A stretch of DNA of 64,000 nt from an uncultured Faecalibacterium sp. (GCA_934525845.1 CAKSZS010000002.1:29265-93264), one strand, 5' to 3'; positions 31,574 to 64,000 are shown, counted from the first letter of the stretch. Translations and numbers: made by a program. Notes: generated from the letters alone by a model not told the origin.

Positions 31574-31761
31574 ACGTTGCGCAGGTTTGCATACGCTATC
31601 TGAACCTGAAAATGCAAAAACGCCCCCGGTGCTACCAACACCGAGAGCGTTTGGAATAGATCGGCTTGCTCACGGGGTGAGACAATACCAGACCAGACAC
31701 CTGTATTGTAGCACCTCCGGGCAGGCTTGTCAAAGTGTACCCTTATGGAGGTGTTATTTTT

Positions 31762-32925
31762 ATGGCTGAATCAAAAAAGAAACCGGCAAAGCGTCCGGAC
31801 GGCGGGGTCTGCATCCACCGGTCGGTGGGTCTGCCGAAGTCGCGGGTGTTCTACGGCAAGACCCGGGCGGAAGCGGAGCGCAAATACCAGGACGCGGTGC
31901 TGGCCTACAAGCTGGAGCGCATGGATCCGAAGGAGAAGCGCTACACCTTTCAGGCGGTGTCCGTGGCGTATGAAGAGTATATCACCGGGCCGCAGCACCC
32001 GGTGCGGCGTGGTACGGTGAACGCCTACAAGAAGCACTTCGCCCCTGCCAGAGCCTATTTCGGCGACACCGTGATGAACGACATCGACGCCCAGGCGGTG
32101 GGCGGATATCTGGAGCATCTGAAGCTGGAGGGCAAGAGCAAGCACTCCATCAAGAACGCGAAAAGCGTGCTGTCCTGCACCTTCACCTACTGGTGCGCCA
32201 ACTATCACGGCACTGGCAACCCCGTGCTGCTGGCAAAGCTGCCTGCGGGGCTGAAGGACGGCAGCAGGGAAGAACCCACCGAGCAGCAGCGGGACCTCAT
32301 CAATGCACACCCCGAGGGCTGCGGCTTCTGGGCCTGGCTGTTTGAGTACACCGGGATGCGTCTGGGCGAAGCCAACGGCCTGCAATGGAAGGACGTGGAT
32401 CTGGATGCCGGGACGATCACGCTGGTGCAGGCCATGCCCTGGGACCGCAACCAGCCCTACCGGGAGCTGCTGAAGACCGAGAAAGCATACCGTACCATTC
32501 CCATCCTGACGCCGCTGCGGCCCCTGCTGGAGGCCGGGAAAGCTGCCCATGCGCCGGAGGACTATGTCCTGTCGGGGGAGGGCAAGCCCCTGACCGAGAG
32601 CAAGTACGAGCACCGCTGGATGCTCTACTGCCGGGGGCTGGGATTGTGCGAGAGCTACACCCGGCAGGTGAAGCTCCCAGCGTTCCAGAACCGCCCCGAG
32701 CGAATCGTGGAACGGACCGTGTACCGCCCGCTGGTCACGGCCCACCAGTTCCGGCATCTGTTTGCCACGAACCTGTTTTACGCGGGTGTGCCGGATATGG
32801 TCGCGCAAAATCTGCTGGGCCATGCGGACATCATGACCACTCGCCGGGTCTACCAGCACCTGCGGGAGAAGGAGAGCGCCCGTTACACGGCGCAGCTGGA
32901 CGCCTATGTGAGCGGGAAGCGGTAA
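31762..32925 (+). CDS. int: tyrosine recombinase / phage integrase
   Basis: C-terminal motifs HQFRHLFAT ... LGHADIMTTRRVYQH (R-H-R-Y). Adjacent to the tRNA-Leu gene. Start ATG at 31762 (GGAGGTG RBS). Confidence 0.8.
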   Translation: MAESKKKPAKRPDGGVCIHRSVGLPKSRVFYGKTRAEAERKYQDAVLAYKLERMDPKEKRYTFQAVSVAYEEYITGPQHPVRRGTVNAYKKHFAPARAYFGDTVMNDIDAQAVGGYLEHLKLEGKSKHSIKNAKSVLSCTFTYWCANYHGTGNPVLLAKLPAGLKDGSREEPTEQQRDLINAHPEGCGFWAWLFEYTGMRLGEANGLQWKDVDLDAGTITLVQAMPWDRNQPYRELLKTEKAYRTIPILTPLRPLLEAGKAAHAPEDYVLSGEGKPLTESKYEHRWMLYCRGLGLCESYTRQVKLPAFQNRPERIVERTVYRPLVTAHQFRHLFATNLFYAGVPDMVAQNLLGHADIMTTRRVYQHLREKESARYTAQLDAYVSGKR

Positions 32926-38500: not shown

Positions 38501-40801
38501 ATGAGTATTTGGGAAAAACTGGGTTTTGGCAGCTACAAGGGCTTTTCGCGGGAGGCTGAACAGCTTCTGCGGCAGGCGGTAGAACTGGCCGGGGGGCTTG
38601 GGTGCGAAAAGGCAGACACCGGCCATCTGCTGCTGGCCATGCTGCAGCAGAAAAACAGCGCAGCAGAGCGCTTTCTGACCGGGAAGCAGGTGTCAGAGCA
38701 GGCGGTGCGCCGTCAGCTGGCCGACAGCCGATGCGGCCCGGCGCTGCATCTGAACCGGCAGGCGCTGGCCCCGGACCTCAGGCGCACCATGGACTATGCG
38801 CTCATCGGGGCGCAGAACGCCCACCGAAGCCGGGCCGAGCCGGAGCACCTGCTCTGCGCCATGCTGGAGGATGACGGCTGCACGGCGGGGCTGCTGCTGG
38901 CTTCCATGGGGGTGCCGCTGACCGAAGCGGTGCGGGAGTGCCGCCAGATGTCCGGCCAGCTGGTGCTGCCGGTGCAGCCGCGGGTCTCAGCCGCCATGCC
39001 CCGGGGCAGCCGTGCCAGCGACAAATACTGCCGCGACCTGACCCGCCGCGCCCAGGACGGGGAGCTGGACCCAGTGTTCTGCCGGGATGCTGAGCTGGAC
39101 CGCATGGTGGAGATCTTATGCCGCCGTCAGAAGAACAACCCCTGTCTGGTGGGGGAGCCGGGCGTGGGCAAGACCGCCCTGGCCGAGGGCCTGGCCCAGC
39201 GCATCGCCTCCGGGCAGGTGCCCAGGGCGCTGAAAGGGCGGCGTCTGCTGGCGCTGGACATGGCCAGTCTGGTGGCAGGCACCAAGTACCGCGGCGATTT
39301 TGAGGAACGGTTCAAGAACCTGCTGGAAGAGCTGGTGCGGGACGGCACCGCCATCCTGTTTGTGGACGAATTCCACACCATCGTAGGGGCCGGTGCCGCC
39401 GAGGGGGCTATCGACGCGGCCAGCATCCTGAAGCCGGTGCTGGCCCGGGGCGAACTGCAGCTTATCGGAGCCACCACGAATCAGGAGTTCCGCACCCACA
39501 TCCAGAAGGATGCCGCCCTGGAGCGCCGCTTTGGCCGGGTGCAGGTGGAGGAGCCGACCCCCGCGCAGGCGGTGGACATCCTCAACGGGCTGGCGCCGCG
39601 CTACGAGCGCTATCACCACGTCACCCTGCCGCCCCACACCCTGCAGGCGGCAGTGGAGCTGGCGGTGCGGTATCTGCCCGGGCGCTGCCTGCCGGACAAG
39701 GCCATCGATCTGGTGGACGAAGCCTGTGCCGCCGCCCGCATCCGCGCCGAACAAAGCGGCAATGCCCAGCCCGTGCTGACCCCGGACGACATTGCCCGGG
39801 TAGTGGCACAGGCCAGCGGGGTTCCCGCGGAGCGGGTGGGCGAGCAGGAACGGGAGCGGCTGGAAAAACTGGAAGAGCGCCTGAACGCGGAGATCATCGG
39901 GCAGCAGCGGGCCGTCGCCGCCGTGGCAGGGGCCATCCGCCGCAGCCGCACCGGGCTGGGAGAACCGGGGCGGCCCATCGGTGCGCTGCTGTTTTTAGGC
40001 CCCACCGGCGTGGGCAAGACCGCCCTGGCCCGGGCACTGGCGGCGGGCTGGTTCGGCAGCGAGAAGGCCCTGCTCAAGTTCGATATGTCGGAGTATCAGG
40101 AGCAGCATACCGCCGCCCGGCTGCTGGGTGCGCCGCCGGGCTATCTGGGCCATGACGAGGGCGGGCAGCTCACCGAGGCCGTGCGCCGCCGCCCCTACAG
40201 CGTAGTGCTGTTTGATGAGATCGAAAAGGCCCACCCGGACATCCAGAACATTCTGCTTCAGATCCTGGAAGACGGCCAGCTCACGGACGCCATGGGCCGC
40301 AAGGCGGATTTCCGCAACACCATCGTGCTGCTCACCTCCAACCTGGGTGCGCGATGCCTGTCCGGACAGGCGGCACCCCTGGGCTTTGCCGCCGGGGCCG
40401 AAGCGCTGTTCGAGAAGCAGGCAGGGCAGGCCGTAGAAGAAGCCAAAAAGTGGTTCCGCCCGGAACTGGTGGGGCGGCTGGACGAGATGATCGTGTTCCG
40501 CCCGCTGAGCACCGACAGCCTGTGCACCATCGCCGAGACCATGCTGTGCCGTCTGGAAGACCGCGCTGCCCGCAATGGGTACCGGCTGCGGCATACGCCC
40601 CGGGTGGGCGCGGCGCTGGCCGCAAAGGCCCAGTCCGCCTACGGTGCACGGGAGCTGCGCCGCGCGGTGGACCGTGCCGTGGAGCAGGCGCTGGCGGATC
40701 AGATCGCGGCGGGCGCGGCCTGCACCGGGCAGTGCTGGACGGCGGACTGCGCCGCCGATGGCAGCATCGTCCTGCGGGAGGATGAAACGGCAACGCTGTA
40801 A
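38501..40801 (+). CDS. Clp/Hsp100-family AAA+ ATPase (ClpA/ClpC-like, two nucleotide-binding domains, N-terminal Clp_N repeats)
   Basis: Two Walker A motifs, GEPGVGKT and GPTGVGKT, plus Clp_N-like N-terminal repeats. 766 aa. Confidence 0.8.
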
Positions 40802-40880
40802 CTTCCCCAATTCCCCCTTGCAACCTGCGGCGTTTTCGTCTATCATAGAGGGAAGAAAACGTTTCAGCAGGGAGGACCCC

Positions 40881-41882
40881 ATGCACACTTTATTTCTCTT
40901 GAATCCGACGGCGGGCAAGGCCGACTGCACCCGGACGCTGCCGGAGCAGATCCATGCGGCGGCCGCCCGGGCGGGCCTGCCGCCGCAGGACTATGCCCTT
41001 GCCGTGACCACCCACGCCGGCCATGCCCGGGAGCTGGCCCATGCCGCGGCCGAACAGACCCGGCAGACGGGGGAGACCCTGCGCATCTTTACCGCAGGCG
41101 GTGACGGCACCTTCAACGAGGCCCTCACCGGGATCTACGGCTTTGAAAATGCCGCCGTGGGCTGTCTGCCCTACGGCAGCGGCAACGATTTTCTGCGCAC
41201 CTTCGGGACAAAAGAAGAGTTCCTGGACCTGGACGCCCAGCTGGCCGGCGGGGAAGTATCCATCGATCTGATGCAGACCAGTCTTGGCCTGTCCGCCACC
41301 ATCTGCGCCGCCGGTCTGGATGCGCAGGTGGCCTACGGCATCCCGAAGTTCCGGCGCATCCCGCTGTGCGGCGGAGAAGTTTCGTATGCGCTGTCCATCG
41401 TGGAGCAGCTGTGCGGGCACATCGGACGGCGGGTGGAGTACACCATCGACGGCGAGGTGCTGCCGGTGGACTGCCTGATGTGCGCCATCTGCAACGGCCG
41501 CACCTACGGCGGCGGATTTTGCGCCGGACCGGAAGCCCAGCCCGATGACGGCTGGCTGGATGTGTTCATCGTGCGCAAGGTGGGGCGGCTCACCATCGCC
41601 AAACTGCTGAGTATGTACAAGAACGGGCGGCACTTCCGGAACGGGCAGCTGGTGGAAGCTGCAAAGCCCTATTTCATCTACCGCCGGGCAAAGTCCGTCA
41701 GCCTGAAAGCCATTGACGGCCGCGGCCCCATCATCGCCACGGCGGACGGCGAGTGTGCCCCCTGTGAGCAGGTGCGTGTGCAGGTGCAGCCCCTGGCCGG
41801 GCGCATCCTGCTGCCGGAACCGGCCTATGAACGATTCCGGACACAGCGGGCTGCCGGGGTGCCGGGAGGACAGGCCCGTTGA
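40881..41882 (+). CDS. DAGK_cat-family lipid kinase (DgkB/YegS-like diacylglycerol kinase)
   Basis: FTAGGDGTFNEAL motif. Its stop overlaps the next gene's start. Confidence 0.7.
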   Translation: MHTLFLLNPTAGKADCTRTLPEQIHAAAARAGLPPQDYALAVTTHAGHARELAHAAAEQTRQTGETLRIFTAGGDGTFNEALTGIYGFENAAVGCLPYGSGNDFLRTFGTKEEFLDLDAQLAGGEVSIDLMQTSLGLSATICAAGLDAQVAYGIPKFRRIPLCGGEVSYALSIVEQLCGHIGRRVEYTIDGEVLPVDCLMCAICNGRTYGGGFCAGPEAQPDDGWLDVFIVRKVGRLTIAKLLSMYKNGRHFRNGQLVEAAKPYFIYRRAKSVSLKAIDGRGPIIATADGECAPCEQVRVQVQPLAGRILLPEPAYERFRTQRAAGVPGGQAR

Positions 41883-42580
41883 GCGGGAACGCCGGCTGCT
41901 GTCCGTGGCAGGACGCGTTGTACCGGGGCATCCTGCGGCAGGAACGCCGGATCTGGGTCGGCGGGGAACCGCCGGAACGGGTCAGCGGACAGCTGAAGCA
42001 GATCCTGGACGACAACCCGCAGATCTTCTGGTTTGATGGCCGGTGGCGCTGGATCCGGCAGGGAAACGGCAGCTGGGTGGAGCCGCTTTACCGTCTTTCG
42101 GGTGCGGAGATCCGCGCAGCGCAGGACGCGATCCGCGTGGTCACGCTGCAGCAGAGCCAATGGGCCGCCGGGTCGGAGCGGGAAAAGATCTGCGGGGTCT
42201 ACTTCTGGCTCCTGGAAAACGTATCGTACGGGCTGGGAGCGTCGGACGGGCAGACGATCTTTGATGCGCTGGTCCTGCGGCAGGCGGTGTGTAAGGGGCT
42301 GGCAAAAAGTATGCAGTTTCTGTTGGGACAGATGGAAGTGCCCGTCTGGCTTTGCAGCGGAACGCTGGACGGAACCACCCGGCACATCTGGAATGCGGTA
42401 AAACTGGATGGGACGGTCTACAATGTGGACGTAAGCCCGGCCTACCCCTGCTTCGACTCTTTTTTTACGGGAGCCGAGCGGCAGGATCGGAGCCGGGGAT
42501 TGCTGCTTTTGGAGGAACAGCGGAAACAGCTGCATCAGCATTTCCGCACGAGGAACGAAAATGAATCTGACAAAATGTGA
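41879..42580 (+). CDS. transglutaminase-like superfamily putative cysteine peptidase
   Basis: Cys-His-Asp arrangement CKGLAKSMQFLL ... TRHIWNAVKLDGTVYNVD. The TTG start overlaps the DAGK stop. The C-terminus overlaps the next gene by 20 nt. Confidence 0.55.
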   Translation: MSGNAGCCPWQDALYRGILRQERRIWVGGEPPERVSGQLKQILDDNPQIFWFDGRWRWIRQGNGSWVEPLYRLSGAEIRAAQDAIRVVTLQQSQWAAGSEREKICGVYFWLLENVSYGLGASDGQTIFDALVLRQAVCKGLAKSMQFLLGQMEVPVWLCSGTLDGTTRHIWNAVKLDGTVYNVDVSPAYPCFDSFFTGAERQDRSRGLLLLEEQRKQLHQHFRTRNENESDKM

Positions 42581-45029
42581 AAACGGACATTATTACGATC
42601 GGGATCGGTTCCCGGTCTGCCCGCACTGCGGCATGGCGCCGGAACAGCCGTTCCCGGATCCGGACGGGCCGGAAACGGAACCGCACGCAATGCAGATCCG
42701 GAAATGCCCGGCGGGGCATTTCTACAATGCCGGGCGCTATGCGTCCTGCCCGCTCTGCAAAACGGAACAGCCGCCGAAACCGAAGGAACTGCCGGAGCTT
42801 CTCCCGGAAAAATACCGGAAGCTTGGAACGATCCGGCTGGAAAACCGGGGCGCTTCCGGGCTGGTTTACGAGATCCGGGGAGATCGGACTTACGCTCTGA
42901 AGGCAATCGACTGCGGCAGGGATCCCCAAAAGCTCGATGCGGCCATGCGCGAAATTCAGGCGATGAAGCGCCTGAACGGTGCAGCCGGCGCGGTGCCGCT
43001 GCTGGAAGATTTTGTGCTGGAAGACGGAGACCGGACGATCGTCTGCCTGCTGGAGCCGTACCGCACCCCGCTGCCGGTTTTCCTGAGGAGACGCGCCCTC
43101 TCAACGGGCGGCATCCTCCGGCTCGGCGGTGCGCTGTGCCGGGCGTTGATCTCCTGCCGGGACGCCGGTGTCCTGCATCTGGACGTGCAGCCCAAAAACA
43201 TCTATCTGGACGAAGTGGATACGGTCTGTCTGGGCGACTTCGGCGTCGTCCGGTTCCGGGAAGAGCCGGAGAACCTGCCGCGCCGCTGTGGGACGGAAGC
43301 CTATATGGGACCGGAAGTGTACGCACAGGGGCAGTGCGGGGAACCATCGGTGCTCTATTCCGTGGGAATGATCCTGTACGCGCTGCTCAACGAACGGGTG
43401 CTGCCGTTTATGGAAACGCTGCCGGCCGAGGAGGCCGCCCGGCGGCGGATGCAGGGAAGCCCGCTGCCGCCGCCCCGAGGACTGACTGCGGAAGAACGGC
43501 CGGTGATGGAGCCGCTTCTGGAAGCACTCTGCGCCTTCCAGGCATCACGGCGCCCGCAGACACTGGATGCCGCTCTGCAGAAGATCACGGAGTGCCTTCA
43601 GGTGCTGGAAGAACAGGGCCTCGGGACAGCTCTGCACGAAGAAGCACCGGCGGCAGCGGGGTGGTTTGACGCAGACACCACAGCGCGGAGCATTCCGCTT
43701 TTCACAGACGATGCAGGAAACATAACCGGTACTGCTCCGGCAGAGACCGGATTGTTTGAAGCCGACCCCACAGCCATGAGCATTCCGATTTCTGCGGACG
43801 ATCGGACAGGCACACCGGGAACTGCCCCGGCAGGGCGGGAACTCTTTGCGGAAGACACCCTTGCGCCCTCTGACGCATTCGGGATCGTTCCGGCGGACTC
43901 GGCCTGCGATCCGACCGTGCCGGAAAAAACGGAACCGCAAAGTATGACGGACATCGTATCCATTACCTGGTTCTGTCCCTGCTGCGGTGCACGCAACGCG
44001 CCGGACGCGAAGTTCTGCGTATGCTGCGGTGCGCGCAGGAGCAGTGCGTCAAATGGACGAGCACCGACGTTCTCGCCGGCACCGGTGCCGGTACCGGCGG
44101 CCTCTGCAGAACCGCCTGCCCGGCAAAAGGGCGGGCTGCTGCAATCCATGCTGGGCTTTCTGCGCAAAGACCGGAAAAAACCGGAACCGGAACAGACGCC
44201 CCTCAACATGGACCGGGTGGAGTTTTCAGCCGTAGCGCCCAAGACCCTGTGCAAAGGGGACTACAGCATTCTGCACCTGATGATGTATGAGACCGCCTTC
44301 CGCCGGGAGGTGGACGCACTGCTGGAACAGGCCGATCGGCCCATGCGGGAAACAAAGGCGGGCGTCCTGCAGGTGCAGAGGAACAAAACGATCCGGGTCG
44401 TGCTGACCTCTCCGGATGTGGAGATCGCGGACGGGGAAGAGCAGCGTGTCTGGCAGGGCGGCTATCTGGACTTCAGCTTTGCCGTGCTGCTTCCGGCGCA
44501 GTACCGGAAGCGGCAGGTGCTGTTTCAGGCGCAGGTGTACATCGACGATGTGATCGCCACCCGGCTGACCTTTACGGCGGACTGCGTTTCGCCGCTGGAG
44601 CAGCGGCTGCAGGTCCTGCGGCAGGATGTCCTGTCGGCCTTCGTCTCGTATGCCAGCGAAGACCGCGCCTGGGTGCTGACCGCGGTGGAAGGCATGAAAA
44701 AGGTCCGCGCGGATCTGGACGTTTTTCTGGATGTGGAATCCCTGCGCAGCGGCGACAACTGGGAATCCCGGCTGTATGCGGAGATCGACCGCCGGGACGT
44801 GCTGTATCTGTTCTGGTCGCGCGCGGCCCGGCAATCGCCCTGGGTGGACCGGGAATGGCGCTACGCAATGGACCAGAAGGGTCTGGAGGCCATTGAACCG
44901 GTGCCCATGGAGCCGCCGGATATCTGTCCGCCGCCCAAGGAGCTGGAAAGCAAGCACTTCAACGACAGCACCCTGTACATCATCAACGCCGAAAAGCGGC
45001 GGCTGAAGACCGGCTCTTCGGGGAAATGA
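42561..45029 (+). CDS. multi-domain protein: 2 N-terminal zinc ribbons + Hanks-type Ser/Thr kinase + triple-repeat linker + third zinc ribbon + unassigned domain + C-terminal TIR domain
   Basis: Zinc ribbons CENGHYY..CPHC and CPAGHFY..CPLC. Kinase motifs GASGLVYE, ALKAID, HLDVQPKN, GDFG and GTEAYMGPE. Third zinc ribbon CPCCGARNAPDAKFCVCCGAR. TIR region VSYASEDRAWV ... LYLFWSRAARQSPWVDREW. Confidence 0.7.
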   Translation: MNLTKCENGHYYDRDRFPVCPHCGMAPEQPFPDPDGPETEPHAMQIRKCPAGHFYNAGRYASCPLCKTEQPPKPKELPELLPEKYRKLGTIRLENRGASGLVYEIRGDRTYALKAIDCGRDPQKLDAAMREIQAMKRLNGAAGAVPLLEDFVLEDGDRTIVCLLEPYRTPLPVFLRRRALSTGGILRLGGALCRALISCRDAGVLHLDVQPKNIYLDEVDTVCLGDFGVVRFREEPENLPRRCGTEAYMGPEVYAQGQCGEPSVLYSVGMILYALLNERVLPFMETLPAEEAARRRMQGSPLPPPRGLTAEERPVMEPLLEALCAFQASRRPQTLDAALQKITECLQVLEEQGLGTALHEEAPAAAGWFDADTTARSIPLFTDDAGNITGTAPAETGLFEADPTAMSIPISADDRTGTPGTAPAGRELFAEDTLAPSDAFGIVPADSACDPTVPEKTEPQSMTDIVSITWFCPCCGARNAPDAKFCVCCGARRSSASNGRAPTFSPAPVPVPAASAEPPARQKGGLLQSMLGFLRKDRKKPEPEQTPLNMDRVEFSAVAPKTLCKGDYSILHLMMYETAFRREVDALLEQADRPMRETKAGVLQVQRNKTIRVVLTSPDVEIADGEEQRVWQGGYLDFSFAVLLPAQYRKRQVLFQAQVYIDDVIATRLTFTADCVSPLEQRLQVLRQDVLSAFVSYASEDRAWVLTAVEGMKKVRADLDVFLDVESLRSGDNWESRLYAEIDRRDVLYLFWSRAARQSPWVDREWRYAMDQKGLEAIEPVPMEPPDICPPPKELESKHFNDSTLYIINAEKRRLKTGSSGK

Positions 45030-45097
45030 TCCGCCGGGCAATACGGTCCTCCATTTTGTGCGGCACAGCCCCGGACGCCGCAGAACGAATCTTTCCG

Positions 45098-45136
45098 AAG
45101 CAGGTGCTTTTTCAGGAAGCACCTGCTTTTTTGCTG
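45098..45136 (+). terminator. rho-independent terminator after the kinase-TIR gene
   Basis: AAGCAGGTGCTTtttcaggAAGCACCTGCTTTTTTT. Confidence 0.7.
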
Positions 45137-45401
45137 CCGCCGAGCGGGAAGCGATCCGTTGTGCCGCACGAAAGCGCCCGGCAGGACCGGGTCCCGAAAA
45201 AAGAACGTTTCTGCGTGAAAGAAATTTTCACATGAAAATTCAGACGATAAAACGATATTTTTGAGAAAACTAAACGGAGAGTATCTTAAAATCAGAGGTT
45301 GTTTTTGACAGTTGATTTTAAATCCCCATCCAGACAGGCCGCCCGGCGGTGCCCGCCGAACGCTTTTATACAAATTGTATTCTGCATCAGAAGCCGGCCT
45401 T

Positions 45402-45429
45402 TGCAGACGGCCCGGAGATGTGGTATACT
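45402..45429 (+). promoter_or_regulatory. putative ligA promoter (TTGCAG-16-TGgTATACT)
   Basis: Extended -10 TGGTATACT at 45421-45429. Confidence 0.35.
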
Positions 45430-45431
45430 AA

Positions 45432-47513
<2,082 letters not shown>

Positions 47514-47665: not shown

Positions 47666-48562
47666 GTGGACGAGTATTACCGTGTGATCCAGGCCCTGCC
47701 GCCCTGGCTGGCGCAGCCGCTGGCCGAGCTGCCGCCGCAGGCTGCCGGCACCATCCATGAACTGCGCCTGCGGGTCGGCAGCGGGGTCGCCCTGAACCAG
47801 ATGGGGCGGCAGGGCCTGCTGGAGCAGCGGGCGGACTGCCCGCCGGCGCTGCGCGGCCTGCGGCTGACGGCAGCGCAGATGGAGGAGATCCTGTATGCGC
47901 TGTGTGACGGCTCGGTACACACCCATCAGACGGAACTGGCTGAGGGGTATCTGACCACCCGGACAGGCTGCCGGGTGGGGATCGGCGGACAGTTTGCGGA
48001 GCGGGAAGGTGGGGGCGTCCTTCTGCAGGCGGTCTCCTCCTTCAACTTCCGCATTGCGCGGGTGCGGGAATGCCGGCTCCCGGCAGAGCTGCTGCAGACC
48101 CTGCAGCAGCGGTTTACGGGAATGCTGCTGATCGGGGAACCGGACAGCGGCAAGACCACCCTTCTGCGGCAGATCGCCCGGACGCTGGCCGGGCAGGACC
48201 GGCTGGTGTCTGTCCTGGACGAGCGCGGGGAGCTGTTCCCGCCGGACAGGCCGGACGCTGCAGAAAGGCTGGACCGGATTGCGGGGCTGCCCAAGGCGCG
48301 TGCGGTGCAGATGGCCCTGCGCACGCTGGCACCGCAGGTCATCCTGCTGGACGAGCTGGGAAGCCTGCGGGAGACCGCCGCGCTGGAACAGGGGTTCTGG
48401 AGCGGGGTGGATTTCATTGCAAGCGTGCACGCTTCCGGCCCGGAAGACGCGCTCCGCCGCCCGCAGGTGCAGTACCTGCAGCGCCGCGGAATGCTGCAGG
48501 TGCTGGTGGTGCTGACCGGGCGGACAGCACCGGGCCGGATCCGGGAGGTGCGGCGGCTGTGA
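47666..48562 (+). CDS. spoIIIAA: stage III sporulation protein AA (ATPase)
   Basis: Walker A GEPDSGKTT. It is the first gene of an eight-gene spoIIIA-like operon. Confidence 0.8.
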   Translation: MDEYYRVIQALPPWLAQPLAELPPQAAGTIHELRLRVGSGVALNQMGRQGLLEQRADCPPALRGLRLTAAQMEEILYALCDGSVHTHQTELAEGYLTTRTGCRVGIGGQFAEREGGGVLLQAVSSFNFRIARVRECRLPAELLQTLQQRFTGMLLIGEPDSGKTTLLRQIARTLAGQDRLVSVLDERGELFPPDRPDAAERLDRIAGLPKARAVQMALRTLAPQVILLDELGSLRETAALEQGFWSGVDFIASVHASGPEDALRRPQVQYLQRRGMLQVLVVLTGRTAPGRIREVRRL

Positions 48563-49023
48563 TGCGGTTTCTGCATGAAGCGGGCCTGCTGCTGCTTCCG
48601 TTCTGCGGCTGGCTGGCAGGCGACCTTGTACAGAGCCGCCGGAACGAGCGTCTGGACGCATTGCAGCAGACCATCGCGCTGTTGCAGCGCATTCGGCAGG
48701 AGATCCTGTACCGCCGGGCCGATCTGCAGGCATTGTACCGCCAGCTCTGCCGGGAGGGGATCCTGCCGCAAACGGCAGCGACGCTGCAGCAGACGCCGGC
48801 GCTCTCTGCGGCCCTGACGCCGGAAGAACAGCGGTGCTTCCGGGAATGCATGGACGGCCTGGGGCGCACCGAAGCGGTGCAGGAAGGGGAACGCCTGCAG
48901 TATTACATCGCACGCTTTGAAGGATTCCGGCAGCAGGCCGGGCAGGAAGAAGCGGCCCGCGCCGGTCTGCCCCACAAACTGGGTCTGGCAGCTGGTGCAG
49001 CCCTTGCGCTGGCGCTCTGGTGA
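48562..49023 (+). CDS. spoIIIAB: stage III sporulation protein AB
   Basis: Start overlaps the AA stop as GTGATG. Size and operon position fit. Confidence 0.6.
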   Translation: MRFLHEAGLLLLPFCGWLAGDLVQSRRNERLDALQQTIALLQRIRQEILYRRADLQALYRQLCREGILPQTAATLQQTPALSAALTPEEQRCFRECMDGLGRTEAVQEGERLQYYIARFEGFRQQAGQEEAARAGLPHKLGLAAGAALALALW

Positions 49024-49075
49024 GCGGCAGCGCTTCTCGGAAAAACAGGTTCCAGGAGCGGAGGATGCGGAAACC

Positions 49076-49270
49076 ATGGAGATCGACCTTGTGTTCAAAA
49101 TCGCGGCCATCGGCATCATTGTGGCGGTGCTCAACCAGCTGCTGATCCGTTCCGGGCGGGAGGATCAGGCCATGATGACCACGCTGGCCGGGCTGATCGT
49201 GGTGCTGTCCATTCTGGTCAAGCAGATCAGCACCCTGTTTGTGACCATCAAGGCCCTGTTTGCCCTATGA
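49076..49270 (+). CDS. spoIIIAC: stage III sporulation protein AC (small membrane protein)
   Basis: 64 aa, two hydrophobic helices. Paralogous in character to AD. Confidence 0.65.
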   Translation: MEIDLVFKIAAIGIIVAVLNQLLIRSGREDQAMMTTLAGLIVVLSILVKQISTLFVTIKALFAL

Positions 49271-49647
49271 GCACGGTGTTCTGGGCGGCGGCGGTGATCC
49301 TGTTTGCGGCAGCGGCGCAGATGGTGCTGCAGAAATATGCCCCTCTGTTCGGGCTGCTGTTCTCCGTCGGGGCGGCGCTGGTGCTGCTGGTACGGCTCGG
49401 CACGGCGGTGCAGACCATTCTGCAGGGCGTCCGGCTCCTGGCACAGCGCACGGACGGACAGGCCTTTTCCTGCCTGCTTCGGTGCGCAGGCATCCTGCTG
49501 CTGACCGACTACCTGCGCACCCTGTGCGAAGAGGCCGGCGCAGATTCCCTGGGGTGGTGCACGGGGTTTGCGGGGCGCTGTCTGGTGCTGGCGGCAGCTT
49601 TCCCGCTGCTGGAAGAGGTCTGCCGGAAGATCGGAGGGCTGGCATGA
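49267..49647 (+). CDS. spoIIIAD: stage III sporulation protein AD
   Basis: 126-aa membrane protein that overlaps both neighbours. Confidence 0.65.
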   Translation: MSTVFWAAAVILFAAAAQMVLQKYAPLFGLLFSVGAALVLLVRLGTAVQTILQGVRLLAQRTDGQAFSCLLRCAGILLLTDYLRTLCEEAGADSLGWCTGFAGRCLVLAAAFPLLEEVCRKIGGLA

Positions 49648-50699
49648 GCGCACGGCAGGGCATCGGGCTGCTCCGGCTGACCGGCGTTCTGGGGCAGGCG
49701 TCTGCCCTGGAACCGCTTCCGGGACAGACCCTGTGGCAGGAATATCTGCAGCACTCCCCGGTCTCAGCGGAAGAATTCTCCCGCGATCCGCTCCACGCAC
49801 TGCTCTCGCTGCTGCCGCAGACACCGGTGCAGATGGCAGCGGATCTTCTCCGCGGCTACGCCGATCTGCTGCTGTTTTTGCTGCTGCTGGCCGTCCTGTC
49901 GTTCCTGCTGGGCGACGGTTCGGACCGGGCGCTGCTGGAGATCGCGGCGGCAGGCGGGTGCAGCCTGCTGATCTGGAACGACCTGCTGGCGCTGGCACAG
50001 ACGGTCTGCGAAAAAATGCAGAGCTGGAAGCTGTTCCTCACCAACTTTCTGCCCGTCTACGGCGGTGTTCTGGCGGCGGGCGGGGAAGCCAATGCCGGGG
50101 CCGCAGCCTGCGGCTTCTACCTGACGGGGCTGTGCGTTCTGGCGCAGGCCGCCGTACAGTGGACGGCCCCGCTGCTGCAGTGCTATCTGATGGGCAGCAT
50201 GGCCTGCTGCATCAGTTCCACCCGCAGTCTGGCCGAAGGGTGCGCGCTGCTGGGAAAGCTCCTGCGGCGGGGCCTTGCGCTGTGCGGAAAGGCGTTTGCC
50301 GTCCTGCTGGGGCTGCAGCGGATCGTGACCCTGCAGCTGGACCGGACGGCTTCCCGCCTGGGGCAGCTGGTGGCGGGAAGCGTCCCCGTGATCGGACAGG
50401 CCTTAAGCGGTGCGGCGGACACGCTTCTGGCAGGGCTGCAGCTGCTGAAAAGCAGCCTGGGGCTTGCCGCGCTGGCCATCCTGGGTGCGGAATTCCTGCC
50501 GCTTTATCTGGAACTGCTGCTGCATCTGCTGCTGCTTTCCGGCTGCAGCCTGCTGTGTGACCTGACCGGCAATGCCCGCTGCAAAAGGCTCATGGACTGC
50601 TTTGCGGAAGCGGTACGCTGCATGGCGGCGGTCACCGCGCTGTTTTTCGGGCTGATCGCTGCAGGAATGGTTTTGCTGATGACGCTGGGAGGTGGGTGA
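49644..50699 (+). CDS. spoIIIAE: stage III sporulation protein AE (polytopic membrane protein)
   Basis: 351-aa membrane protein with multiple hydrophobic segments. Confidence 0.65.
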   Translation: MSARQGIGLLRLTGVLGQASALEPLPGQTLWQEYLQHSPVSAEEFSRDPLHALLSLLPQTPVQMAADLLRGYADLLLFLLLLAVLSFLLGDGSDRALLEIAAAGGCSLLIWNDLLALAQTVCEKMQSWKLFLTNFLPVYGGVLAAGGEANAGAAACGFYLTGLCVLAQAAVQWTAPLLQCYLMGSMACCISSTRSLAEGCALLGKLLRRGLALCGKAFAVLLGLQRIVTLQLDRTASRLGQLVAGSVPVIGQALSGAADTLLAGLQLLKSSLGLAALAILGAEFLPLYLELLLHLLLLSGCSLLCDLTGNARCKRLMDCFAEAVRCMAAVTALFFGLIAAGMVLLMTLGGG

Positions 50700-51162
50700 A
50701 TTGCAGACCGTCCGTGCCCTTACGGCAGCGTTCTGCCTGGCCTGCATCGGTGCGGAGCTGACCGCACAGCTGGTGGATGCCGGGTGGGCGCGCCAATGCA
50801 TAAAAGCGCTGGCGGGGCTATATATTTTAGTGGTCCTGCTCCGGCAGCTGACCGGTGCGGCGGGAACGTTTTCCGTGCCGGCCGCGGCCTCGGCTGCACC
50901 GGCGGATCTGGGCAGCCCGGAGCAGCTGCTCCTGACGCAGGCCGAGACCCGGCTGGAAGACTCGCTGCAGCAGACCATCCGGCAGACCTGGGGCACCGAA
51001 GCGGGCCTGCAGATCCGGCTGACCTCGGACGGGACCGCCGCGCAGGCACAGCAGGTGTGGGTGGAGTTCCGTCCGGAGTGCTCGGCGGAAATGCAGGAAC
51101 AGATTCTGAACTTTCTGGAACAGGAGCTGGGCACCCGGCCGGAACGGCAGGAGGGAGTATGA
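50692..51162 (+). CDS. spoIIIAF: stage III sporulation protein AF
   Basis: 156 aa with N-terminal TM helices. Position in the operon fits. Confidence 0.55.
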   Translation: MGELQTVRALTAAFCLACIGAELTAQLVDAGWARQCIKALAGLYILVVLLRQLTGAAGTFSVPAAASAAPADLGSPEQLLLTQAETRLEDSLQQTIRQTWGTEAGLQIRLTSDGTAAQAQQVWVEFRPECSAEMQEQILNFLEQELGTRPERQEGV

Positions 51163-51668
51163 TGGAGCCGATGGAGTCCCTTCGCAGACGGCTGTCCGGC
51201 CGGCCGGCGAAAACGCGGCTGGCCATCGCGGTGGGTGCCGCTGCCATGCTGCTGATCCTGCTTTCCGAGCTGCTTCCCGCCGGAAAACAGCCTGCTGCGG
51301 AAACGGAACGCTCGGCCGCGCAGGCGGCAGCCGCGTATCAGACGGCCATGGAGCAGCAGCTGGAAGAACTGATCCGGCAGATGCAGGGCGCGGGGAAGAC
51401 CACGGTCATGCTCACGCTGGAGACCGGAGAGGAAACGATCTATGCACTGGATACCCAGTCCGGACAGGCACAGAGCCAGGAGACCCACGTTCTTCTGGAG
51501 GATGGCACCGCCCTGACCGAGACCGTCTATCAGCCGCAGATCCGCGGCGTGGCCGTGCTGTGTGAGGGCGGAAGCGATGTCCGGGTCGCCGCCCGCATCA
51601 CTGAGCTGCTCAGCGCCCTGCTGGATCTGCCGTCCAACCGGATCTGTGTGGAACAGCGCACAGCCTGA
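51159..51668 (+). CDS. spoIIIAG: stage III sporulation protein AG
   Basis: 169 aa with an N-terminal TM helix and a soluble domain. Start overlaps the AF stop. Confidence 0.6.
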   Translation: MMEPMESLRRRLSGRPAKTRLAIAVGAAAMLLILLSELLPAGKQPAAETERSAAQAAAAYQTAMEQQLEELIRQMQGAGKTTVMLTLETGEETIYALDTQSGQAQSQETHVLLEDGTALTETVYQPQIRGVAVLCEGGSDVRVAARITELLSALLDLPSNRICVEQRTA

Positions 51669-63151: not shown

Positions 63152-63480
63152 TTGACAAGACCGTTTCCTTGTGATAAAGTAACTGTTGTGAATGGCGATG
63201 AAGGGAACAAGTATCCTGTCCGCATTCTGCTCAGAGAAACCCCGGTTGGTGAAAGGGGCTGCAGAACAGCAGGAGAAATACCTCCCGGAGCTGCAGGCTG
63301 AACGTTCTGACCAGTAGGCCGTGCCGCGTGCGAGCGTTACAAACGCAGGAGTGTCACTCTACTCTGGGGTGTGCACTCGTGAGGCCGTTTCCGTGAGGGG
63401 GCGGCAAACAGAGGTGGTACCGCGATTTTCTCGCCCTCTGCCAAATTCAGGTTTGGCAGAGGGTGTTTTTGTTTCCTCTG
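63152..63480 (+). ncRNA. tyrS promoter (TTGACA-17-TAAAGT) plus T-box riboswitch leader with terminator/antiterminator
   Basis: T-box sequence GAGGTGGTACCGCG at 63411-63424. Terminator CGCCCTCTGCCAAAttcaggTTTGGCAGAGGGTGTTTTTGTTT at 63433-63476. Confidence 0.65.
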
Positions 63481-63504
63481 CCCACAAAACAGGAGGATAT
63501 TTCC

Positions 63505-64000
63505 ATGACTTTGTACGAAGAACTCCAGGCACGCGGTCTGGTCGCCCAGATCACCGATGAGGAGATCATTGATCTGATCAACAACGGCAAGGCGACCTTC
63601 TACATCGGCTTTGACTGCACCGCCGACAGCCTGACCGCCGGCCACTTTATGGCTCTGACCCTGATGAAGCGTCTGCAGATGGCCGGCAACAAGCCCATTG
63701 CCCTGATCGGCGGCGGCACCACCATGATCGGTGACCCTTCCGGCCGTACCGATATGCGCAAGATGCTGACCAAGGAAGACATTGCCCACAATGCCGCCTG
63801 CTTCAAGAAGCAGATGGAAAAGTTCATCGACTTCTCGGAAGGCAAGGCGCTGATGCTGAACAACGCCGACTGGCTGCTGAATCTGAATTATGTGGAACTG
63901 CTGCGCGATGTGGGCGCCTGCTTCTCGGTCAACAATATGCTGCGCGCCAAGTGCTACGAGCAGCGGATGGAGAAGGGCCTGTCCTTCCTGGAATTCAACT
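63505..64000 (+). CDS. tyrS: tyrosyl-tRNA synthetase, 5' part (continues beyond window)
   Basis: [13 protein letters not shown] ... HIGH-class motif region ([13 protein letters not shown]). AGGAGG RBS. The ORF runs to the window edge. Confidence 0.85.

Follow-up and report, generated by a model that had tools for sequence, protein, structure and literature searches.

A conserved Tgase-like and kinase-TIR gene pair in an uncultured Faecalibacterium: a candidate TIR-effector conflict cassette

TIR domains are central to the immunity of bacteria, plants and animals, and how bacterial TIR domains are restrained and activated is known for few systems. Here, we analyse a stretch of 64,000 nucleotides from an uncultured Faecalibacterium sp. 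(GCA_934525845.1 CAKSZS010000002.1:29265-93264; hereafter 'the window'), in which two overlapping genes encode a transglutaminase-like (Tgase-like) enzyme (gene A) and an 822-aa protein that joins a Ser/Thr kinase to a C-terminal TIR domain (gene B). We found no described TIR defence system with such a coupling of a TIR domain to a protein kinase and a papain-fold enzyme, and it is well supported that the two-gene cassette is real, conserved and uncharacterised.

Among described systems, SpbK of B. subtilis ICEBs1 and other single-chain TIR NADase defence proteins resemble gene B in carrying a sensor head and a TIR domain with a conserved Glu in one chain. Unlike these, the cassette has a kinase head, a β-sandwich directly before the TIR domain and an obligatory Tgase-like partner, and in the window it does not lie on a mobile element. 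Thoeris has a TIR_2-type domain in common with the cassette and gives weak ThsB and ThcB4 profile matches, but these fall far below cut-offs (PADLOC ThsB1, 16.5 bits; Pfam ThsB_TIR, 14.5 bits against 21.2; NCBIfam ThcB4, 24.7 bits against 220), the TIR domain of gene B is fused to a kinase, and its partner is Tgase-like; no ThsA-type effector (SIR2, Macro or SLOG) was present in the operon, among its neighbours or beside the pair in the other loci examined. A Hanks-type kinase domain is likewise found in PD-T4-6, Mad6 of MADS, Stk2 and PglW of BREX, all of which lack the TIR domain, the β-sandwich and the Tgase-like partner, whereas the cassette kinase has the variant catalytic loop HLD[VI]QP[KR]N. 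PADLOC matches to mad6 (101 bits) and PD-T4-6 (74 bits) covered the kinase domain only, NCBIfam MAD6 scored 64.6 bits against a cut-off of 460, and the NCBIfam equivalogs MAD6, ThcB4, retron-TIR and PglW were all far under their cut-offs; no PADLOC model matched the Tgase-like protein or the lipid kinase (DAGK) encoded immediately upstream. We therefore rejected assignment to a known system, as the PADLOC and NCBIfam matches are confined to the level of the kinase or TIR domain, through the former of which an automated PADLOC run might label gene B as mad6 or PD-T4-6. In animals, the ZU5-UPA/FIIND proteins (NLRP1, CARD8, PIDD, UNC5 and ankyrin) and MyD88-IRAK are reminiscent of the cassette in their protease partner, MyD88/TIRAP-like TIR fold and kinase-TIR coupling, but the cassette has one β-sandwich, no sequence match and no conserved autoproteolysis His, and we regard the resemblance as an analogy and a lead, not as membership.

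Papers from the Aravind group place TIR, kinase, FHA, Tgase-like and ZU5 parts in other conflict systems, not in this cassette, and full-text literature searches returned no description of the kinase-TIR/Tgase-like architecture. Judged by these comparisons, the cassette appears to belong to no described system tested. A first-pass annotation, made from the window's sequence alone, had called the architecture unfamiliar and proposed a new sensor-effector unit. The proposal is borne out in so far as the pairing is conserved, fusions of the two genes exist and matches to described system models stop at single domains. The unfamiliarity is partly qualified: no described system model covers the pair, but kinase-TIR proteins as such are not rare, making up 46 of 248 sampled proteins that share the C-terminal module of gene B.

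The Tgase-like and kinase-TIR gene pair

The two genes and their parts are laid out as follows.

41879-42580, + strand: Tgase-like gene (gene A), 233 aa, TTG start
42290-42292, 42383-42385 and 42428-42430, + strand: codons for the Tgase-like catalytic residues C138, H169 and D184 (Cys-His-Asp triad)
42561-45029, + strand: kinase-TIR gene (gene B), 822 aa, multidomain (two zinc ribbons, Ser/Thr kinase, repeat linker, zinc ribbon, β-sandwich, TIR)
42576-42758, + strand: two zinc-ribbon-like motifs of the form C-x3-H-x9-C-x2-C at the N-terminus (residues 6-23 and 49-66), evident in the sequence itself, with only weak Pfam zinc-finger matches
42813-43610, + strand: Hanks-type kinase domain, residues ~85-350 (Pkinase match at residues 96-294, E = 4e-23, 82.7 bits against a cut-off of 31.7)
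43665-43904, + strand: disordered linker with three imperfect 30-aa repeats, residues 369-398, 399-428 and 429-448, seen in the translation
43974-44030, + strand: linker Cx2C-x10-Cx2C zinc ribbon, residues 472-490 (weak matches: Zn_Ribbon_1, E = 0.002; DZR, E = 0.006)
44622-44996, + strand: TIR domain, residues ~688-812, with Glu765 (44853-44855) in a W-V-x-x-E motif; putative NAD+-cleaving or assembly domain

Few relatives emerged when the whole 822-aa protein was used in a word-indexed search; the identical protein is present on 21 contigs. Both full-length kinase-TIR relatives below 98% identity (P0002 and P0003) have a Tgase-like gene directly upstream, and the next relative (P0004) is a Tgase-kinase fusion without a TIR domain. 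Searching from the Tgase side yielded 13 further homologues, and in all four contexts that were looked up a kinase-TIR gene follows immediately downstream, in otherwise unrelated surroundings: alongside ClpC and DAGK genes in a sister species, behind a group of TIR-HD, RyR and TIR-kinase genes in L095, behind a gene for a TIR-methyltransferase in L096, and, in L097/L098, ~2 kb downstream of an Abi_2 gene with three small open reading frames (ORFs) in between. When metagenomes were scanned with a Tgase profile, a kinase was encoded directly downstream of, or fused to, the Tgase in 7/7 close relatives; four of these carry the β-sandwich-TIR module, two run off the contig end (L108 and L110) and one stops after the kinase (L113), so that the module is present in 8 of the 11 Tgase contexts (four looked up plus seven metagenomic). 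In one of them (L111, 398-3604), FHA, Tgase, kinase, linker, β-sandwich and TIR are all carried by a single 1068-aa protein, and three more Tgase-kinase-β-sandwich-TIR fusions were found among representative proteins. The L111 protein joins the products of both cassette genes to a phospho-Thr reader domain, as a 'Rosetta stone' fusion, and its repeat linker contains NADSVGETTVL-type motifs.

Overall, the pair recurs in at least ten divergent lineages, sometimes as a fusion. The first-pass annotation had grouped it with the upstream YegS/BmrU-type lipid (diacylglycerol) kinase gene as a unit of three. Among the contexts examined, DAGK adjoins the pair solely in this species and its sister species, where the gene order TSCPD-ClpC-DAGK-Tgase-kinase-TIR is the same as here; the called genes show none beside the pair in L008 and L095-L100, nor does a four-domain scan in L109 and L112. 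Because the pair is conserved across varied contexts and in fusions and DAGK is confined to two species, the conserved core comprises two genes, Tgase-like and kinase-TIR. In this lineage, the cassette has joined the transcription unit of the DAGK/YegS gene, a housekeeping neighbour that is co-transcribed with it, and the unit of three genes is a lineage-specific operon arrangement.

Domains and conserved residues

The product of gene A is predicted to be a cytoplasmic transglutaminase-fold (papain-like) Cys-His-Asp enzyme, homologous to TglA of S. pyogenes. Its Transglut_core match lies just under the gathering score (E = 3e-4; 21.4 bits against a cut-off of 23), and a profile of its family matched TglA (PDB 9crn) over nearly its full length (E = 1.7e-24). 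An AlphaFold2 model (predicted local distance difference test score, pLDDT, 89.6) gave 9crn as the top Foldseek match (E = 3.4e-12; query-normalised TM-score 0.69). Homology to TglA covers nearly all of gene A, including the N-terminal subdomain, at ~20% identity and with the triad in common; TglA is longer (379 aa), with an extra C-terminal region. The C138-H169-D184 triad does not vary among 14 homologues, and inspection of the sequence by eye revealed neither a signal nor a membrane segment. We regard TglA and the transglutaminase-like cysteine peptidases (LapG/BTLCP, CPR-C4 and 3isr) as the nearest known relatives of gene A; full-text literature searches found no account of the function of S. 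pyogenes TglA.

A remote, more TglA-like family of ~350-aa gut Tgases (L114-L186) was considered as a functional clue and set aside, its neighbours being unrelated (CobW, DUF3878 and AsnB). The sole exception was L168 (1101-3800), where a standalone Ser/Thr kinase gene lies directly upstream of the Tgase member; the link between kinase and Tgase may extend beyond the TIR-associated subfamily.

In gene B, the kinase residues K114 (in YALKAID), E131, D208, N213 and D226 (in GDFG) are all present, including the Lys and Asp that the first-pass annotation had singled out as catalytic. The corresponding Lys, Glu, Asp, Asn and DFG-Asp are kept in 39-45 of 46 kinase-β-sandwich-TIR proteins, and because the catalytic residues are conserved across the family the kinase is predicted to be active. 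The catalytic loop (residues 206-213; 43170-43200) reads HLDVQPKN instead of HRDLKPEN and thus departs from the canonical HRDxKxxN with its Lys at D+2. The departure extends to the family signature HLD[VI]QP[KR]N, in which position D+2 is Q in 28/46 members and position D+4 is basic (K or R) in 29/46. A Q at D+2 with a basic residue at D+4 recalls the arrangement in tyrosine kinases, and the substrate specificity of the kinase may be unusual.

Between kinase and module, family members have a linker of median length 163 aa with much Ala, Pro and Ser and, in many cases, a Cx2C…Cx2C ribbon. The repeats of gene B, previously described as units of ~28 aa, are real at the protein level as units of 30 aa (16/30 positions identical between repeats 1 and 2) and undetected in the DNA by Tandem Repeats Finder. 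Each opens with F[DEA][AE]D..T/S (FDADTTARSIP, FEADPTAMSIP and FAEDTLAPSDA). A linker motif of the form [FYW]DAD-x-Φ-x-x-T occurs in 26/46 kinase members of the family, in 6/184 non-kinase members and in 1.2% of shuffled controls, a distribution that ties it to the kinase, and the repeats are candidate phospho-acceptor, docking or cleavage sites. Several family members have Leu at +3 from the motif Thr, where the window has the context T-A-x-S-I-P. A Leu at +3 fits an FHA pT-x-x-L site. The three zinc ribbons proposed previously stand as Cys motifs that can be read in the sequence, with weak Pfam support for all of them.

The C-terminal part of gene B is widespread. An exhaustive HMMER search with residues 540-822 matched 6,128 representative clusters at E<1e-3, of which 1,048 were at E<1e-30. 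In the best 150 of these clusters, matches covered approximately the whole of a ~265-aa region at 47-74% identity, at the C-terminus in almost all cases, in proteins of 293-1,429 aa. Because the matches span both halves together, the β-rich region, initially taken for a separate unassigned domain, and the TIR domain form one conserved ~265-aa C-terminal module, with the β-rich region as its N-terminal half. TIR_2 matched residues 694-800 of gene B (E = 4.5e-17; 63.1 bits against a cut-off of 28) and was found in 76/76 family members scanned. Glu765, which lies in W-V-D-R-E here, is invariant in 150 sequences, and such an invariant Glu in a TIR motif points to catalysis; motif reasoning and a weak alignment make it the putative equivalent of SARM1 E642 and of the Glu of Cat1. 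With TIR_2 and Pkinase both above their Pfam cut-offs, the kinase and C-terminal TIR domain assigned to the 822-aa protein in the first-pass annotation are secure, and profile searches (Pfam and NCBIfam) upheld its domain assignments for all three proteins of the operon.

The heads attached to the module vary. Among 76 sampled members they include Pkinase (26), zinc ribbon (18), FHA (6), Transglut_core (3) and VWA (3), as well as TPR, LRR_5 and Sel1; source databases label these proteins, for example in Blautia and other Clostridia, merely as 'TIR domain-containing protein'. The analysis thus exposes a very large unannotated β-sandwich-TIR family in abundant human-gut Clostridia, often in multi-TIR arrays with FHA, VWA and kinase heads. 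On gut Clostridia contigs (L102-L106, L095 and L109), arrays of three to five distinct TIR-domain genes, including TIR-HD and TIR-kinase, were observed with a Card1-like nuclease gene beside them. L102-L104 have three TIR genes in array, and the L105/L106 array contains TIR-Sel1, TIR-VWA-LRR, a bare module, TIR-kinase-FHA, DUF4062-TPR and the Card1-like gene. Such arrays suggest a larger multi-TIR network, of which we came across no description.

An AlphaFold2 model of the module, built from a 61-sequence alignment (mean pLDDT 84), contains a β-sandwich at residues ~550-676 (pLDDT >90) followed by a flavodoxin-like TIR fold. By structure comparison, this TIR fold is nearest to filament-forming TIRs, including the B. 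subtilis abortive-infection NADase SpbK; the best sequence match among solved TIRs was Cat1, at a negligible level of similarity (E = 0.019). The β-sandwich had no Pfam match at E <= 10 and no ZU5, UPA or FIIND sequence match. Foldseek recovered UNC5b and ankyrin-B amid generic β-sandwiches ranked equally high. We therefore rejected a sequence-level ZU5/UPA/FIIND assignment, the Foldseek result being indecisive, and use 'ZU5/UPA-like' as a lead only; PMC8195603 cites Zhang et al. 2012 for bacterial origins of ZU5 autopeptidases. The first β-strand (V-x-F-S-A-x-A-P-K; 44208-44225) has a nearly invariant F555-S556 that superficially resembles the F/S autocleavage site of NLRP1 and CARD8. An autoproteolytic module of that kind is not what we found: the β-sandwich contains no invariant His, and it is single, not a ZU5+UPA tandem. 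A plasmid of Allocoleopsis franciscana (NC_019761.1, 6323-7855) carries a distantly related copy, which aligns with 98% of the module at 30% identity and lies near two very large caspase-family genes; the module is thus not confined to Clostridia but is also found in conflict-system settings in multicellular cyanobacteria.

A possible conflict system and its alternatives

Whether the cassette is a TIR-effector biological-conflict system is, in our estimation, an evenly balanced question; if it is one, anti-phage abortive infection is its most likely form. The pair has conflict-type neighbours in other lineages (Abi_2, TIR-HD, TIR-kinase, RyR and TIR-methyltransferase genes), and its evolutionary rates are asymmetric. 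Compared with the sister species, DAGK is 79% identical, ClpC 84%, the Tgase-like protein 62% and the kinase-TIR protein 49%; within the last, the N-terminal zinc ribbons are the fastest-evolving ordered part, at 29% identity, and the linker is lower still at 19%, whereas the kinase reaches 53%, the β-sandwich 75% and the TIR domain 77%. A fast-evolving head and partner on a constrained output module is the pattern that would be expected of a sensor/effector conflict protein.

Our confidence in the individual steps of a mechanism is lower than in the general class. The fast-evolving head and the Tgase-like partner would detect or transduce a trigger, upon which the kinase, working in cis or in trans, might phosphorylate the linker motifs. 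As a peptidase, the Tgase-like enzyme could then cleave either the linker or some bound partner. The β-sandwich-TIR module would thereby be licensed for oligomerisation, and the assembled TIR domains would cleave NAD+, resulting in depletion or in a nucleotide signal. Most likely, the kinase would mark the linker motifs and the Tgase-like enzyme cut the linker, a protease-licensed release that would have its analogues in bacterial gasdermin proteases or NLRP1/CARD8. If functional, the cassette would extend the known regulation of TIR effectors to phosphorylation and possibly to proteolytic licensing, provide a bacterial counterpart to MyD88-IRAK signalling and to the protease-licensed death-fold assembly of NLRP1/CARD8, and open a way into the study of conflicts with phages or between cells in keystone gut commensals; its catalytic residues, linker motif and fusion proteins are direct targets for mutagenesis. 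A bolder extension, which we think quite unlikely, would make the β-sandwich-TIR module the common assembly unit of a large, undescribed signalling and immunity network in gut Clostridia, a prokaryotic hybrid of Myddosome and FIIND, in which differently headed paralogues (kinase, FHA, VWA, LRR, zinc ribbon and Tgase) co-polymerise, FHA heads are recruited by the kinase-written phospho-Thr of [FYW]DAD…T, and Tgase-like peptidases cut the linker to permit filament formation, as in the release of UPA-CARD from NLRP1 and CARD8.

Several observations weigh against a conflict system. The cassette sits amid housekeeping genes, is fixed, and has neither a clearly foreign composition nor mobile-element or defence neighbours, which is unusual for defence genes. 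Its module retains 50-60% identity across more than 1,000 clusters, above what is usual for defence effectors, and was absent from 50,697 phage records, with one match in IMG/VR and one distant plasmid match; this near-absence gives no hint of mobility. A conserved Glu alone is no proof of catalysis, and the top structural matches of the TIR domain are MyD88 and TIRAP, scaffolding TIRs without NADase activity. The Tgase-like enzyme could cross-link, deamidate or just bind rather than cut. Finally, the loci were mostly collected via the Tgase-like gene, so the share of kinase-TIR genes with a Tgase partner rests on few independent cases.

The chief rival is that the cassette is a housekeeping Ser/Thr-kinase signalling unit that helps DAGK and ClpC to control, for example, the envelope, lipids or proteostasis, and in which TIR and β-sandwich serve as a non-enzymatic scaffold. 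Fixation in the species, the gene order TSCPD-ClpC-DAGK-Tgase-kinase-TIR held in common with the sister species, translational coupling to DAGK and a native-like GC content at third codon positions (GC3) would all fit such a unit, as would the scaffolding MyD88/TIRAP TIRs as best matches and the FHA and VWA heads, which are typical of phospho-signalling. We nevertheless consider it unlikely, because in other lineages the pair occurs without DAGK or ClpC and beside Abi_2 or TIR-effector fusions, because the flanking housekeeping genes change far more slowly than the head and the Tgase-like protein, because the 10 kb upstream of ligA, the stretch searched in 80 related genomes, contains neither the pair nor ClpC nor DAGK in any of them, and because the invariant TIR Glu suggests catalysis. 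That the lipid kinase is instead integral to a system of three genes, contributing a lipid signal or membrane anchoring, is suggested by the overlapping stop and start codons, by the single promoter and terminator, and by retention of the DAGK-Tgase overlap in the sister species; its absence beside the pair in L008 and L095-L100, the lack of any DAGK fusion among 76 module proteins and its housekeeping rate of evolution (79% identity against 49-62% for the pair) make this very improbable.

There is a slim chance that the TIR domain works as in Thoeris, making a nucleotide second messenger for a killing effector encoded elsewhere, such as the neighbouring TIR, HD or Card1-like genes of other genomes. 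The weak ThsB/ThcB4-type similarity and the module arrays with HD-domain and Card1-like nuclease genes point that way, but the similarity amounts to 24.7 bits against 220 and 14.5 against 21.2, and no ThsA-like or other effector gene accompanies the operon or most of the pairs. Least probable of all, and extremely so, is a secreted or contact-dependent interbacterial TIR NADase toxin, freed by a Tgase-like or ZU5-like releasing peptidase in the manner of polymorphic toxins. The C-terminal position of the TIR domain, the possible ZU5/UPA-like domain ahead of it and the peptidase partner would suit this explanation, and releasing peptidases of Tgase-like and ZU5-like folds were reportedly described in polymorphic toxins by Zhang and colleagues in 2012. 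Yet no signal peptide, LXG/WXG, Rhs, type VII secretion system or other secretion marker was found in the proteins or their called neighbours, no small immunity gene is adjacent (the lone candidate, a 69-aa ORF, crosses the terminator), and a kinase head is atypical of such toxins. A TIR effector system regulated by kinase and protease is the reading we prefer.

Operon and genomic setting

The remaining features of the operon are listed below.

40818-40846, + strand: sigma-70-like promoter candidate TTGCAA-17-TATCAT in the 79-nt gap between clpC and DAGK, 9/12 consensus matches (a consensus match only)
40881-41882, + strand: YegS/BmrU-type lipid (diacylglycerol) kinase gene (DAGK, gene 1), 333 aa, nested in a longer ORF (40575-41882)
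45097-45135, + strand: intrinsic terminator at the operon end, with a 15-bp stem, 3-nt loop and T6 tail (-22.9 kcal/mol; z = -3.2)

Gene 1 matches DAGK_cat and YegS_C and scores 121.4 bits with TIGR00147, above the cut-off of 118.65. It overlaps gene A by 4 nt (TTG at 41879 against TGA at 41880-41882), gene A overlaps gene B by 20 nt (ATG at 42561 against TGA at 42578-42580), and a GGAGG-like ribosome-binding site lies 5-8 nt ahead of all three starts. The operon is flanked by a gene for a ClpC-like ATPase on one side and by ligA on the other. The layout given in the first-pass annotation accordingly holds: an ORF listing and the sequence agree on the coordinates of the three overlapping genes, the hairpin and T-run of the strong terminator are there, and profile matches and gene calls identify both flanking genes. 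A fourth gene proposed by gene callers, the 69-aa ORF at 45026-45235, which overlaps the stop of gene B by 4 nt, was rejected, as it runs through the terminator hairpin, and is probably a false call. Its tblastn matches were solely in contigs of this species; those of the sister species end within ~250 nt of the kinase-TIR stop and are uninformative on this point. An Rfam scan found no RNA element inside or beside the operon.

Loci anchored on ligA were compared with those of 80 genomes of Faecalibacterium, Gemmiger and Subdoligranulum (tblastn, blastn and tblastx). The LigA protein is 90-93% identical to that of Faecalibacterium and the DNA ~75%, the window being more GC-rich, which we take to indicate a gut species of the Oscillospirales related to Faecalibacterium. 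Synteny with the 80 genomes begins at the ligA start (~45,500) and extends downstream over spoIIIA, nusB and xseA; the 10 kb upstream of ligA, the part searched in these genomes, contain no clpC, no DAGK and neither gene of the pair. The onset is abrupt (45136-45510), and the window's 45 kb upstream of ligA match nothing in the 10 kb upstream in relatives; this boundary is probably a lineage-specific rearrangement breakpoint. All 11 contigs with the exact DAGK protein have the same neighbourhood, and GC3 is 0.77 for the Tgase-like gene, 0.74 for the kinase and 0.82 for the β-sandwich-TIR part, compared with 0.81-0.87 for neighbouring genes. Because the 11 contigs are alike, the sister species is syntenic and GC3 is near-native, the cassette is a fixed, ameliorated resident of its lineage, with no demonstrable recent insertion.

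The first-pass annotation had read the locus as an insertion into a conserved backbone. With no relative among the 80 having clpC-DAGK upstream of ligA, fixation in 11/11 contigs and GC3 only slightly lower than in neighbours, that reading is not supported; an insertion between DAGK and ligA could not be confirmed in relatives that have no homology upstream of ligA, and rearrangement or lineage-specific gene order is more likely. Nor does the locus look like a recently inserted defence island, being fixed, syntenic in the sister species and near-native in GC3, with the nearest integrase-like gene ~8 kb upstream. This phage-integrase-family gene (31681-32922; Pfam annotation taken from the identical contig L001) is separated from the cassette by polysaccharide deacetylase, aconitase, PHP, TSCPD and ClpC genes, and no connection to the cassette was found.

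Downstream of ligA, the spoIIIAA-AH operon (47666-51200) encodes a SpoIIIAA that is 52-65% identical to its Faecalibacterium orthologues, against 90-93% for LigA; these sporulation genes are evolving quickly. Faecalibacterium is generally held to be non-sporulating. Near the window end, the + strand carries a T-box leader at 63189-63441 (Rfam RF00230, 116.6 bits), which ends ~45 nt within an ORF (63397-63999) that was predicted by a crude GC3 scan alone.

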